Positions 987 to 53,751 of a DNA stretch of 64,000 nucleotides are shown here, one piece after another. The stretch is from assembly GCA_963706715.1 (NCBI GenBank), contig CAVPNI010000002.1, forward strand, positions 128,001-192,000, in the 5' to 3' direction. The notes below the pieces were generated by a model, which saw only the letters and a program-made list of their open reading frames with translations, did no database searches and was not told the origin of the DNA. The DNA comes from an uncultured Verrucomicrobiae bacterium (GTDB lineage Bacteria; Verrucomicrobiota; Verrucomicrobiia; Chthoniobacterales; Xiphinematobacteraceae). How positions within the stretch are numbered: position 1 is the stretch's first letter; each line of letters opens with the position of its first letter. A program made the translations under genes and the position numbers.

Positions 987-1043
987 AAAAATCGTTGTGG
1001 CTGCCCGTCCGGCAGGGTTTTTTCTGCCCGTCCGGCAAGGACC

Positions 1044-2834
1044 TTAACTGGTTTTGAGCACTTGAATAAAGGCTTCTTGAGGGATATTCACGGTGCCAAT
1101 CGCTTTCATTCGTTTTTTTCCTTCCTTTTGCTTTTCCAGAAGCTTGCGTTTGCGAGTGATATCACCTCCATAACATTTGGCAGTGACGTTTTTGCGAAGG
1201 GCGGACACACTTTCACGCGCAATAATTTTCCCACCGATCGCTGCTTGAATTGCCACTTGATACAATTGTGCGGGAATCACCTCTTTCAGTTTTGCCGCGA
1301 GAGCACGCCCCCGAGCTTCGGCTTTATCGCGGTGGACAATGCTGGAAAAGGCATCGACCGGCTCCCCATTGACAAGCATTTCCAGCTTTACCAGGTTTGC
1401 GACACGATATCCCCCAGGTTCATAATCCATCGAACCATAACCGCGAGTCAGCGTTTTAATCTTGTCGTGGAAATCGACGAGAATTTCGTTCAGTGGAAGG
1501 GTGGCTTTGATCATCACGCGCCGATTGTCCAATGATTCGGTTTGCTCGACTTGTCCCCGTTTTTCCAGCATGAGCTGCATCATGTCACCAATATTCTCAT
1601 TAGGAATCATGACAAAGCATTTGACGATCGGTTCGCGAATTTCTTCGATCACGCTCATGTCCGGCAAATTTGCCGGATTATCCACTTCCAGGCGCTCGCC
1701 ATTGGTTTTGATGACTTCATAGACGACGCTAGGGTAAGTAGCGATAATATCCATGTCGTATTCACGGCGCAAACGTTCCTGGATAATTTCCATATGCAGA
1801 AGGCCGAGAAAGCCGCAACGAAACCCAAAGCCTAGAGCGACGCTACTTTCCGGTTGGAAGACAAATGCCGCATCGTTTAATTGTAATTTCCCCATGGCGG
1901 TTTTCAGATGCTCAAAATCAGCGGTATTGATTGGATAAATTCCGGAAAAAACCATGGGGTGTACTTCCTGGAAGCCGGGCAAGGGAAGCGGCGCCGGCCG
2001 CTTGGCATCAGTTAGAGTGTCACCGACCCGAATTTCTGAGGTAGACTTAATATTGGCGATGAAATAGCCCACATCCCCCGTATTGAGCCGCGGTTGGCTG
2101 AGCATCTTGGGAGTAAAGACTCCCACTTCCTTAATTTCATAGTTCTTGTTGGTTGCCATCATTTTGACGGCCTGGCCCGGAGCGAGGCTTCCGGAGAAAA
2201 CACGAAGGTAGCCAATAACCCCTCGATAACCGTCAAACACAGAATCAAAGACGGACCCGCGCAAAATTTCATCTTCCGCAACCGGAGCCGGAATCCGCTT
2301 CACAATGGCTTCCAAAATTTCCACAATTCCCAAACCTGCTTTAGCGCTTGCTTCGATAGCCTCCTGGGCAGGAATCGCCAAGACGTCCTCCAATTGGCGT
2401 TTGACTCCGGGCACATCCGCATTGGGTAGATCAATTTTGTTGATTACGGGAATAATCGTCAGATTCTGCTTCATTGCTAAGTGAACATTGGCGACAGTTT
2501 GAGCCTCCACTCCCTGTGCGGCATCAATAATAAGCAGCGCGCCTTCACAAGCGGCTAGGCTGCGTGAAACCTCGTAGGCAAAGTCCACATGACCGGGGGT
2601 ATCCAGCAAATTTAAGCGATACTCACAACCGTCTTGTGCTCGATAGCGCATGGCGACAGGATGGGCTTTAATAGTGATGCCGCGCTCCCGTTCCAAATCC
2701 ATGGAATCCAGGAGCTGATCCTGTTTTTCGCGCTGAGCAATCGTTCCAGTGCTCTCTAAGAGCCGATCAGAAAGTGTGGTCTTGCCATGATCGATGTGTG
2801 CGATAATACAAAAATTACGCGTGTTTTGAGACAT
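1044..2834 (-). CDS. lepA: Translation elongation factor 4 (LepA)
   Basis: RNFCIIAHIDHGKTTL, DTPGHVDF, NKID and C-terminal KCYGGDITRKRKLLEKQKEGKKRMK. Likely start is MSQNTRNF at 2834. Confidence 0.98.
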   Translation of the reverse strand: MSQNTRNFCIIAHIDHGKTTLSDRLLESTGTIAQREKQDQLLDSMDLERERGITIKAHPVAMRYRAQDGCEYRLNLLDTPGHVDFAYEVSRSLAACEGALLIIDAAQGVEAQTVANVHLAMKQNLTIIPVINKIDLPNADVPGVKRQLEDVLAIPAQEAIEASAKAGLGIVEILEAIVKRIPAPVAEDEILRGSVFDSVFDGYRGVIGYLRVFSGSLAPGQAVKMMATNKNYEIKEVGVFTPKMLSQPRLNTGDVGYFIANIKSTSEIRVGDTLTDAKRPAPLPLPGFQEVHPMVFSGIYPINTADFEHLKTAMGKLQLNDAAFVFQPESSVALGFGFRCGFLGLLHMEIIQERLRREYDMDIIATYPSVVYEVIKTNGERLEVDNPANLPDMSVIEEIREPIVKCFVMIPNENIGDMMQLMLEKRGQVEQTESLDNRRVMIKATLPLNEILVDFHDKIKTLTRGYGSMDYEPGGYRVANLVKLEMLVNGEPVDAFSSIVHRDKAEARGRALAAKLKEVIPAQLYQVAIQAAIGGKIIARESVSALRKNVTAKCYGGDITRKRKLLEKQKEGKKRMKAIGTVNIPQEAFIQVLKTS

Positions 2835-2934
2835 GCAAAGCCCTATAGTATTGCGACGAGCGAGGCATTGGTCAATGCTGGGCCAAGAATATGATGCCGC
2901 GCCTAATTTGGCCGTCCTGTCTCTTTGCCTTCCA

Positions 2935-51173: not shown

Positions 51174-52007
51174 CTAATGATGGGCTCCATTCGCATTATT
51201 GCGATCGTAGAGGAAAAGATTTGCTCCGCGAGCCAATAAGACAAATGTGTTGTTGTCTCCGTACTTGGACCAAGGACCATTGGGGATTTCTCGAAATTCC
51301 ACGAACTTCCAATCGCAGTAGTCCTTGCCCTCGAGCCCTAGATAATCGCGCACGGCAGGCGAAACGTCGAGACCTGCTCCCTGGTTTAGATTGGGTCGAG
51401 GGTATTCTCTGCCGAACACATATTGATAATGATCGGTTCGGAAGGGGCCGCAGTCTTCCCATTGGGCATAGCAGACACGATTGCCCTTCCGAATCGCAAC
51501 CCATCGTCCTTTCAGGACCGTTTTTCCATGTTTCTCAAAGGCCTGCCGGAACCAGGGAATCACCTTGAATGCCTCGGATTTGGTTCTTCCACGGCTCACA
51601 TCGTTATAGGGAAGTGCTATATAGAATGGGTTCTGTTTCGGCACAAAAGACTTCGGAATATAGTTTCTTCTTGCATAGGGGTCCGAAGAATCCGAACCGC
51701 CATAACTCCGGGCCCATTTGGCATCCCAGGAGCTTTTATAGTTAGGAACCGGATTTCTAACTGACGACTGTTCGCCCACCCAAAAAATGGTCGTCCTCAC
51801 ATTCCGTTTCCACGGATAACGGCCAGCGATACCATACGAAGGCGCAACGACCTGTGGTTCGATTTTCAAAAGCGCCATTTCGCGCAGCTTAATCGCATAC
51901 TGTTGAAAGTCCGTGCTGGATGACATGGGTGACTGAGCACGGGCTCCGCCTGCAGCTACAAGCAGGAAGGCCAATGGAAGCAAAAATAAGAGGTGGGGTC
52001 TCATCAT
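51174..52007 (-). CDS. Secreted conserved hypothetical protein, possible double-psi beta-barrel (RlpA-like) fold
   Basis: Signal peptide, then TTIFWVGE, NPFYIALPYND, YAQWEDCGP, GLDVSPA. The fold assignment is inference. Confidence 0.6.
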   Translation of the reverse strand: MMRPHLLFLLPLAFLLVAAGGARAQSPMSSSTDFQQYAIKLREMALLKIEPQVVAPSYGIAGRYPWKRNVRTTIFWVGEQSSVRNPVPNYKSSWDAKWARSYGGSDSSDPYARRNYIPKSFVPKQNPFYIALPYNDVSRGRTKSEAFKVIPWFRQAFEKHGKTVLKGRWVAIRKGNRVCYAQWEDCGPFRTDHYQYVFGREYPRPNLNQGAGLDVSPAVRDYLGLEGKDYCDWKFVEFREIPNGPWSKYGDNNTFVLLARGANLFLYDRNNANGAHH

Positions 52008-52104
52008 TCTATGGAGTTCTCGGCGGACGATGGGGCAGGTGTTCTCGCCGGACGGGCAAAATAGACAGATTTTTTTCTTCGAAGACACTTAATTGAAAAT
52101 TTTT

Positions 52105-53751
52105 TCAAGTCGAATCGCTTCTCATGTCGGTATCGTGCAGATAATTAGAATCATTTTTTTGCGGAAAATCCAGGGTATAGTGCAACCCACGGCTTTCTTT
52201 ACGTTGCATGGCACTTTTCACGATGAGTGAAGCGACAGTGACGAGATTGCGCAGTTCCAACAAGTCTGTGGAAAGCTTGAACTTTTGATAAAACCCCTGA
52301 ATTTCGGCACGCAGACTCCTGAGTCGAGCATCGGCCTGTCGCAAACGTTGGCTATTTCGCACAATACCCACATAATCCCACATGATCCGCCGAATTTCAT
52401 CCCAGTTGTGGTAAATGATGACCATTTCGCTCACATCCTGTACTCGGTGGCTTCGCCATTCCGGCAGATCAAATTTTTGCCTACGGGGTTGAGGAGTATT
52501 CGTAATTTTGTCAAAGCAAAGGTGAGCCATGACGACGGCCTCCAAAAGAGAATTGCTCGCTAAACGATTAGCACCGTGGAGACCGGTGCACGCAACTTCG
52601 CCGACGGCATAGAGTCCGCGAAGCGTTGTTTCCCCGTCGAGATCAGTTTTCACTCCTCCACACTGATAGTGTGCGGCGGGAACTACAGGCACCGGTTGCC
52701 GGGTGAGATCAAACCCATATTTTAAGCAGGTTTCGTAAATCTTGGGAAATCTTTGCCTGATAAAGTCGGCTGGTTTGTGAGTAATATCCAAATAGACACA
52801 TTTGCTTCCCCGTTGTTTCATTTCGGCGTCAATGGCTCGTGCAACAATGTCGCGTGGCGCCAATTCCGCCAGGGGATGGTACTTTTGCATAAACTGCTGC
52901 CCTTGGACATCAGTAAGGATAGCTCCTTCACCTCGGATTGCTTCGCTGATCAGAAAAGACTTTGCTTCGGGATGGTACAAACAGGTTGGATGAAATTGGA
53001 TAAATTCCATATTGGAGATCACCGCCCCGGCGCGCCAGGCCATGGCGACGCCATCACCTGTGGCAACATCCGGATTGGTCGTATACAAATAGACTTTTCC
53101 GCAGCCACCGGTTGCTAAAAGCGTCACATCACTCCGAAGGGTTTCTACGGTCCCTGTTCGTTCATCCAGTACGTACACGCCGACGCAGGTGGCGGCTGGG
53201 CTATACGAGGACTGCCCGCCCTGCAAAGACTCTGGTAAAGACATCTGCTCGTCCGGCGAGAACTCCGACGAGGACGTGGTAATGAAATCCACCGCCATGT
53301 GATTTTCCAAAAGTTCGATATTGGGGTGTTCCGCCAGACGGCGTAACAATGCGCGTTCAATTGCAAGGCCAGTAAAATCCTGGACATGGAGAACTCGCCG
53401 TTTGGAGTGCCCGCCTTCCTTGCCCAGATCGAGGTTTCCGCCCGAATGTTGATCAAACTGGACACCCATTTGAATGAGCTCAGCAATACGAGCGGGGGCT
53501 TCTGCCACCACGTGTCTGACCACCGATTCGTTGCAGAGTCCCGCTCCGGCAGTGAGAGTGTCCTGAATATGGAGTTCGAAAGAGTCTTCCCGACTACTCA
53601 CACACGCGATTCCTCCTTGAGCCCCTGCTGTATTTGATTCGGCTCGGCCCCTTTTTGTGATCACCACAACATGACCTTTGGATGCTGCTTTCATGGCAAA
53701 GGTGAGACCCGCGATCCCGCTCCCAATAACAATAAAATCTACTTCTCTCAT
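52105..53751 (-). CDS. nadB: L-aspartate oxidase
   Basis: GSGIAG, AQGGIA, EGGHS, QFHPT, HYQCGG, GLHGANRLASNSL, ESRGLH. Confidence 0.97.
   Translation of the reverse strand: MREVDFIVIGSGIAGLTFAMKAASKGHVVVITKRGRAESNTAGAQGGIACVSSREDSFELHIQDTLTAGAGLCNESVVRHVVAEAPARIAELIQMGVQFDQHSGGNLDLGKEGGHSKRRVLHVQDFTGLAIERALLRRLAEHPNIELLENHMAVDFITTSSSEFSPDEQMSLPESLQGGQSSYSPAATCVGVYVLDERTGTVETLRSDVTLLATGGCGKVYLYTTNPDVATGDGVAMAWRAGAVISNMEFIQFHPTCLYHPEAKSFLISEAIRGEGAILTDVQGQQFMQKYHPLAELAPRDIVARAIDAEMKQRGSKCVYLDITHKPADFIRQRFPKIYETCLKYGFDLTRQPVPVVPAAHYQCGGVKTDLDGETTLRGLYAVGEVACTGLHGANRLASNSLLEAVVMAHLCFDKITNTPQPRRQKFDLPEWRSHRVQDVSEMVIIYHNWDEIRRIMWDYVGIVRNSQRLRQADARLRSLRAEIQGFYQKFKLSTDLLELRNLVTVASLIVKSAMQRKESRGLHYTLDFPQKNDSNYLHDTDMRSDST

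Follow-up and report, generated by a model that had tools for sequence, protein, structure and literature searches.

A 19-nt hairpin repeat has been inserted again and again, and in frame, into intact genes of an uncultured Verrucomicrobiae bacterium (Xiphinematobacteraceae), and its copies likely peak around the replication terminus. The repeat, with consensus CTGCCCGTCCGGCRAGGAC, was analysed in a stretch of 64,000 nucleotides, the window (positions 128001-192000 of contig CAVPNI010000002.1, here C2), in the whole source genome (G000, 3.04 Mb and rich in insertion sequences, IS), in four congeners (G001 to G004) and in genomes of other phyla. Members of this genus range from 0.9 to 3 Mb, G003 and G004 having 0.9 Mb each. 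The reading preferred here, given a probability of roughly 0.5, is that of a micro-element comparable to the repetitive extragenic palindromes (REPs), non-autonomous and gene-less, which likely spreads as single-stranded DNA (ssDNA) caught at gaps or breaks of the terminus.

Abundance and in-frame insertion

Unless stated otherwise, matches to the 19-mer were counted at up to three mismatches. The window contains 15 of them for 0.02 expected, a number reached in none of 100 shuffles, and G000 as a whole contains 48 (15, 10, 13 and 10 at 0, 1, 2 and 3 mismatches), whereas the reversed pattern has a single match genome-wide and 12 permuted patterns average 0.9. The over-representation assumed by the original prediction, which had been made from the letters of the window, is therefore real, and so are the copies that it listed: all are matched at this threshold except those at 14667 and 14709, which have diverged. 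The window is not typical of G000, as it carries 15 of the 48 copies in 2% of the DNA. By dropping a chance match in acnA, two borderline matches and three segmental duplicates, the 48 matches were reduced to 35 loci, two of which are paralogues with one shared copy; one further copy was left uncounted. According to a simple gene caller, coding frames hold 26 of the 35 loci, with 19 copies in antisense and 7 in sense orientation (p 0.03). The host genes include ligA, argF, nadB, pheT, an addB-like gene, those of a pseudouridine synthase, an epimerase and an integrase, and large toxin-like open reading frames (ORFs).

The copies are true insertions without an orthologous counterpart, found in many frames and on both strands, and in the window the insertion is in frame at all seven coding loci. 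On the forward strand, a phosphorylase gene has received 21 nt (TA plus the 19-mer, 3263..3283), hence seven additional residues, at a site that is empty in G001 and G002. An insertion of the same length in ligA (7366..7386, forward) adds seven residues shortly before the catalytic KxDG and is empty in the four congeners. In the linker between a kinase and MurQ, a reverse-strand copy with the compensatory stem CTCC/GGAG (5979..5997) corresponds to 24 nt more than in G002 (+8/+5 residues). The argF gene carries a reverse-strand array of three units (10769..10823; 19+1, 19 and 16 nt) worth 20 residues relative to three relatives, and a pilC-like gene gains 14 residues, by orthologue alignment, from a perfect forward copy with a 12-nt sub-repeat (12626..12656). 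Two forward copies and 12-nt sub-repeats in nadB (53212..53275) add 15/19 residues, one decayed copy being present at this site in G002. In the tail of the penicillin-binding protein (PBP) PBP1a, three forward units at a spacing of 21 nt (14667..14727) add a net 21 residues relative to G001; the middle unit has the consensus and the outer two have one common variant at 5-6 mismatches. Between genes, a perfect forward copy upstream of a gene of the phospholipase D family (4033..4053) is a 21-nt insertion relative to G002 and lies 120 nt from the dif-like site described below. A forward tandem pair, variant plus consensus at a spacing of 23 nt, occupies the lepB-lepA gap (1001..1042), which is ~40 nt longer than in G001, and an intergenic reverse-strand copy (52041..52059) precedes what is likely the true start of ORF 51174.

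The ORFs are thus left intact, as had been claimed, by insertions that are in frame and by a 19-mer whose six reading frames are all stop-free. Alignment of LigA, ArgF, NadB and the PBP to their relatives, proposed at the outset, reveals an indel at each copy, and the idea of a selfish micro-element adding peptide loops is supported by true insertions in many frames, on both strands and free of stops. Outside the window, the pseudouridine synthase gene is 21 nt longer than in G001; other sites are not all clean insertions of 21 nt (pheT, -3 and -12; addB, +9 and -6), and several aligned too poorly or gave lengths other than 21. Despite their inserts, LigA, ArgF and NadB score above the NCBIfam equivalog cut-off. 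Alignment to solved structures places the ArgF insert between the helix ending IQESL and the following strand, the LigA insert just ahead of the catalytic KxDG strand and the NadB insert in a variable loop; an AlphaFold model of ArgF built from four sequences had low confidence overall (mean pLDDT 51).

The acnA match at 20334 is a chance one, no indel being present there in four relatives, and the same verdict applies to the G001 matches in murA and in the orthologue of ORF 51174. Between 20.4 and 52 kb of the window, a segment comprising rpoB/rpoC and the IS cluster, no match was found at the threshold used, in agreement with the earlier remark that these genes and IS elements hold no copy.

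Structure and ends of the unit

The conserved unit consists of a GCCY foot, a 4-bp stem GTCC/GGAC at its 3' end and a GGCRA loop. Covariation was followed in a set of 54 distinct variants, taken from G000 and from ten further genome groups (up to four mismatches near the anchor), which are not independent, one genome supplying most of the double changes; 15 of the 16 double changes in GTCC/GGAC are Watson-Crick compensatory. The TGCC/GGCA stem of the original prediction does not withstand this comparison, as only one of its four double changes is compensatory; the same count led to the rejection of a tail-loop pseudoknot (GCC/GGC).

Positions 1-19 are conserved at 68-100%, position 0 is not, and the 3' end of the unit is fixed as GGAC. 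The dinucleotide immediately 5' of the unit is variable (TT 8, TA 6, TG 6, AG 5, AT 5, others). Tandem units follow one another head-to-tail at 19-23 nt, and 5'-shortened units of 12, 16 and 17 nt exist. The flanks are biased: the base two positions upstream is W in 29 of 33 loci, and YY follows the unit in 24 of 33. Across 35 loci the mean length of a target-site duplication (TSD) is no higher than with permuted flanks (p 0.76, 0.68), a 6-nt case in G001 being the exception, and models with a TSD (17+4 or 19+2) are unsupported by this permutation. Among paralogues within G000, a near-identical empty site was not found.

The fixed 3' end, the 5'-shortened units and the lack of TSD would all fit a retro-insertion, in which a group II intron reverse transcriptase (RT), working in trans, would copy a small RNA that ends at the foot of the hairpin, the product being patched into breaks, and G000 possesses 14 RT ORFs of three families. 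Such an origin is nevertheless improbable. No copy lies inside the intron ORFs, one array merely abutting the 3' remnant of a group II intron; 16 motif loci gave no Rfam family at gathering score; and the replacement of the loop of DNA-nuclease-linked SRM hairpins, described in the next section, points to DNA.

The same motif in distant phyla

For the comparison across phyla, 25 genomes were chosen from at least 123 GTDB stretches with an exact copy of the motif as a 17-mer. Fourteen of them contain 9-141 copies at up to one mismatch, for 0-1 per strand in controls, and high copy numbers occur in genomes of the Actinomycetota, Planctomycetota, Bacillota, Elusimicrobiota and Deltaproteobacteria. 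The counts reach 141 in Actinophytocola, 118 and 63 in two metagenome-assembled genomes (MAGs) of Deltaproteobacteria, 93 in Saltatorellus, 88 in a Planctomycetaceae MAG, 70 in Flavonifractor, 44 in Saccharothrix and 16 in an Elusimicrobiaceae MAG. Within its own phylum, G000 alone is expanded among 401 genomes: 394 of the 400 others have no exact copy and the remaining six have one coding match each. Elsewhere the motif behaves as a module: it is found at the end of lineage-specific repeats, in 17-nt tandem arrays or in place of the loop of SRM/CGTC-type hairpins; in the Planctomycetaceae MAG it appears as free units, two of them in frame within an ABC permease.

In actinobacterial metagenome contigs (L412, L432, L441, L424, L451, L478), motif-ended hairpin elements lie ~400 nt from tRNA-3'-end-like sequences, a neighbourhood that recalls the attachment sites of islands. 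In a Melainabacteria MAG (L042 ~280-460), the motif was seen by eye after a duplicated tmRNA-5'-like segment.

This distribution bears on an explanation that dispenses with dedicated machinery, in which template switching, slippage and gene conversion would have multiplied a few ancient captures, with a higher frequency at the terminus. The 12-nt sub-repeats and the tandem arrays do resemble slippage, and, in a post hoc observation, 13 of 33 loci have RRAY at 0-4 nt on their upstream side, for a background of 16%, as if new units landed behind look-alike ends. Slippage, however, cannot carry 21 nt between unrelated genes, and one identical 17-mer with compensatory stems is expanded in six groups while being absent from nearly all genomes of its own phylum; the explanation is accordingly judged quite improbable.

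A DNA uptake sequence or a genome-wide host tag, also envisaged in the original prediction, would account for conservation at the DNA level within coding regions. Uptake sequences number in thousands; they form sets of hundreds to thousands of evenly spread copies born by substitution. Here, in contrast, only 48 clustered copies are found, which arose by insertion and not by point mutation, are mostly lacking in the congeners and abound in other phyla, and this possibility is hardly credible.

Clustering around a dif-like site

A single-copy 28-mer on the forward strand (3888..3915), likely the site of chromosome dimer resolution, lies at the centre of the cluster of copies. It is 95-97% identical in G001 and G002, although the intergenic DNA around it has diverged, and the maximum of the cumulative GC skew of contig C2 falls at ~15.6 kb of the window. 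As a predicted XerCD site, it is a single sequence of 28 bp, close to the GC-skew switch, conserved in relatives and composed of arm, spacer and arm, a layout that we take to be that of dif and from which the label is derived. G000 has two xer-like ORFs and one ftsK-like ORF, by short motif match only, and no match to the dif-like region was found in the two 0.9-Mb congeners G003 and G004.

Within 1, 5, 15 and 50 kb of this site are located 2, 5, 10 and 15 of the 35 loci, for 0.02, 0.12, 0.35 and 1.15 expected. Ten of the loci are in the window (0.74 expected), and the best 64 kb of the genome has 13, a value reached in 0 of 20,000 simulations. Six other repeat patterns (43-154 hits) have 0-1 hit within 15 kb of the site. 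The cluster is ~30 kb wide and the copies near the site have mixed orientations. On the complete chromosome of Saltatorellus, 28 motif-bearing elements are centred at 3.47 Mb, with the skew switch at 3.72-3.95 Mb, and display a broad terminus bias (Rayleigh p ~3e-4).

Such a sharp peak could also result from the retention of inserted copies near dif through the binding of a host protein, matS-like or involved in fork processing. This is the part of the earlier protein-site idea that is kept as a rival, the host-specific tag having been discarded. The conservation of the copies is in its favour. At four sites common with G002, the G002 copies have 21 lineage-specific changes in 76 nt, as in neutral decay, and the G000 copies have 5 for ~29% expected, although the G000 sites were picked for their closeness to consensus, which inflates conservation, and the probability of at most three mismatches under neutrality is 0.16. 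Copies in the N-terminal extension of an EVE protein differ between G000 and G001 at 2 of 19 positions (P 6e-6 if neutral). There is no excess of 4-mismatch copies in G000 (7, as against 5-11 in controls), and together with the EVE case this suggests that the copies are either renewed from a template or under selection; renewal would fit the PBP array, in which a consensus unit stands between two units of the same variant. The retention of copies by a host protein is nevertheless rather unlikely. Indeed, G001 has the dif-like site and the gene order, but no genuine copy in ~130 kb of synteny (contig C52; one 4-mismatch hit). The mixed orientations are not those of a polar signal, and the terminus bias was not seen on three actinomycete chromosomes.

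Proposed mechanism and search for a partner enzyme

If the element spreads as ssDNA, as preferred here, the units of tandem arrays would be cut out in trans by a nuclease that reads the hairpin and cleaves 2-3 nt on the 5' side of each. The pieces so freed, of ~21 nt, would have a fixed 3' end and, at the 5' end, bases that depend on the donor. Repair would capture them at gaps or breaks, presumably commonest in terminus DNA; selection would retain only whole-codon inserts in tolerant loops, and the freed oligonucleotides may convert old copies back to consensus. The variability of the 5' dinucleotide would be accounted for by a cut placed a few bases away from the hairpin. SsnA cuts ssDNA a few bases from its own hairpin and tolerates variation at the cut (PMC11893778), peaks of RecA-ssDNA flank dif in E. 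coli, where gaps and breaks are frequent (PMC10287960), and IS608, a single-strand transposon, targets blocked forks (PMC5027513). The scenario in its most complete form, an ssDNA hairpin oligonucleotide of ~21 nt that is common to at least six bacterial groups, cut by a widespread enzyme, inserted at terminus breaks and able to rewrite older copies, is a possible but doubtful one.

Several observations weigh against a gene-less element mobilised in this way. Y1_Tnp has no match in G000-G004, and 13 of 18 genomes tested have no Y1 match. The only GIY-YIG protein of G000 is UvrC-sized (535-aa frame), with no small GIY-YIG found, and DUF559 has no match in G000 and does not track the motif. Neither the clustering of 1,193 neighbour ORFs nor a Pfam search of 148 of 209 selected ones brought out a nuclease or transposase that recurs beside the motif: the largest cluster, with 17 loci, was a chance coding match in one conserved oxidoreductase-like gene, and IS3, IS110 and IS256 were met as isolated neighbours only. 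By itself the hairpin has little stability (-2.5 to -3.4 kcal/mol, z about -0.2 to -0.6), an indication that a protein may recognise it. We infer the exact junctions, because the relatives differ at 49-62% of four-fold sites (49% between G000 and G002, 62% between G000 and G001) and offer no near-identical empty allele. To these must be added the actinomycete chromosomes mentioned above, as well as copies that look better conserved in G000 than neutral decay permits, which fits binding-site selection too.

The original prediction proposed to look for a linked transposase, RT or HUH gene beside the copies; no recurrent partner emerged among the families tested. Around 20 Y1 loci of five other genomes, one near-exact motif was present within 1.5 kb and none of the loci was flanked on both sides. 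In two motif-rich genomes, five small GIY-YIG genes have other hairpins at their flanks instead of the motif, and GIY-YIG and EVE have no match in G003 and G004. ISL3 was rejected as a partner, being present in 5 of 16 genomes and showing no matching hairpin near 20 ISL3 loci, and so was EVE, which is present in 4 of 18 genomes and does not track the motif. Among viral contigs, 106 motif stretches had no recurrent linked enzyme, and a BLAST search of plasmids returned weak hits only. A primosome-assembly-site idea, based on a resemblance, was dropped for want of support. Small GIY-YIG genes with SRM-like hairpin flanks, in the manner of Ssn-type cassettes, are present in an Elusimicrobiaceae and a Deltaproteobacteria MAG (L523, L538, L545, L547, L524).

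If the scenario in this most complete form is true, the insertions would record chromosome break sites and would constitute a natural in-frame peptide-tagging system. The element adds loops of 7-21 residues to essential enzymes such as LigA and PheT. The route by which REPs and Rickettsia palindromic elements (RPEs) enter coding sequences usually lacks a mechanistic handle, and three are available here: a precise structure, identical in distant phyla, with which the missing enzyme could be fished out; the lengths and ends of the insertions, which the orthologues disclose; and a 30-fold excess of loci in the 15 kb on either side of the dif-like site, which points to terminus gaps or breaks as the entry.

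Relation to known repeats

The element works like intragenic REPs and RPEs but lacks the distinctive traits of GTAG REPs, CGTC/SRM repeats, RPEs and miniature inverted-repeat transposable elements (MITEs). Intragenic REPs are known, including in Opitutus terrae (Verrucomicrobiota), with in-frame cases in DNA ligase and pseudouridine synthase genes (PMC3733652). As with the GTAG/CGTC REPs of that paper, a short tag and a hairpin are repeated singly or in groups, some of them in frame, and the stem-loop occurs in multicopy grouped units as in REP/RAYT systems. The foot, however, is GCCY and not GT[AG]G, and no Y1 (HUH) gene flanked by the repeat was found in G000. The 4-bp stem, the length of 17-21 nt as against 20-40 bp, the mostly intragenic location and the clustering at dif are further differences from the REPs so described. 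Compared by eye with the SRM pattern given in PMC11893778, the unit does not show it, and its CGTC overlaps the stem and is broken by compensatory variants. The likeness to the Ssn/SRM system of that paper lies in a cross-phylum hairpin with conserved bases 5' of the stem, and in the presence of the motif within SRM-like hairpins of an Elusimicrobiota genome; no small single-domain GIY-YIG gene flanked by the repeat was found. RPEs are selfish repeats that are likewise inserted in frame, as extra loops, into unrelated intact genes, but measure about 105-146 bp as summarised in PMC3184786 and PMC3733652. The unit studied here is far shorter, at 19-21 nt; it is found in several phyla and concentrates around the terminus.

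The transposition of IS200/IS605 elements is not known to give a TSD, and matS, Ter and KOPS keep their sequence throughout a clade and are not known to originate by insertion. The terminus enrichment recalls the latter signals, from which the element differs by its congeners without copies, its ~30-kb cluster and its mixed orientation. Both matS and Ter are also named in PMC10287960. With IS200/IS605 and TnpA-REP, as presented in PMC5027513 and PMC6006769, the element shares a hairpin with a 4-nt 5' foot and an attraction to stalled forks, but neither G000 nor the four congeners have a Y1 transposase and the target tetranucleotide is not strict. Unlike a DDE-type MITE, it has no terminal inverted repeats and no excess of TSD. 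The letters of the motif, in six forms, were unmatched in a full-text search of the published literature, and may be tabulated in figures or supplements of PMC3733652, PMC11893778 and PMC6006769, in RepRanger (PMC12306157) or in PMC7901474. Neither the family, nor its identity across phyla, nor its dif-centred pile-up was found in the literature searched.

Related hairpins and neighbouring features

A hairpin that may be related to the 19-mer (GCCTG, a CCGC stem and a GGCGA loop) lies on the reverse strand within the left end of an ISL3 element (43869..43886). Hairpins with this GGCGA loop and a GCC foot are located in the left end of two ISL3 families, for a total of 43 copies in G000, one of which abuts the 3' end of a group II intron. 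The ISL3 element belongs to a nested IS stack (43414-48521), in which an IS630-like element with 31-nt inverted ends is broken by ISL3 from 43798, itself broken by IS701, an IS4 being located further on at 46727-48196. A ~255-bp TA-ended MITE (C1:278.6-278.9 kb and 31 other places of G000) contains an internal GTAG-footed hairpin, the stem of which resembles the core of the 19-mer. Inverted heptamer tandem repeats are found at 14454-14551, between ribD and the PBP gene, at 51019-51052 and at 55247-55280; a rough pattern detects 68 such loci in G000, and these do not coincide with copies of the 19-mer.

An ~80-bp repeat family flanks acnA (19256-19334 and 22239-22317) and abuts the dif-like site (3785-3870), and ends similar to it border an integrase-KfrA pair at C2:116.6-119.3 kb. 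The fusion of a sugar kinase with the MurQ etherase (5149-6936) is also present in G001 and G002. Very large toxin-like ORFs with a TcdA/TcdB-type pore domain (L146, L161; C1:502-510 kb, C4:47.5-53.4 kb) bear in-frame 19-mer copies, and one of them has a C80 peptidase. Finally, a region of G000 resembling an integrative and conjugative element exists in two copies (C3:153.7-154.1 kb and 510.4-510.8 kb), each with a different membrane-protein gene of ~370 nt, and the same slot in G001 (L004 ~5150-5250) contains only a short spacer with the 19-mer repeat.

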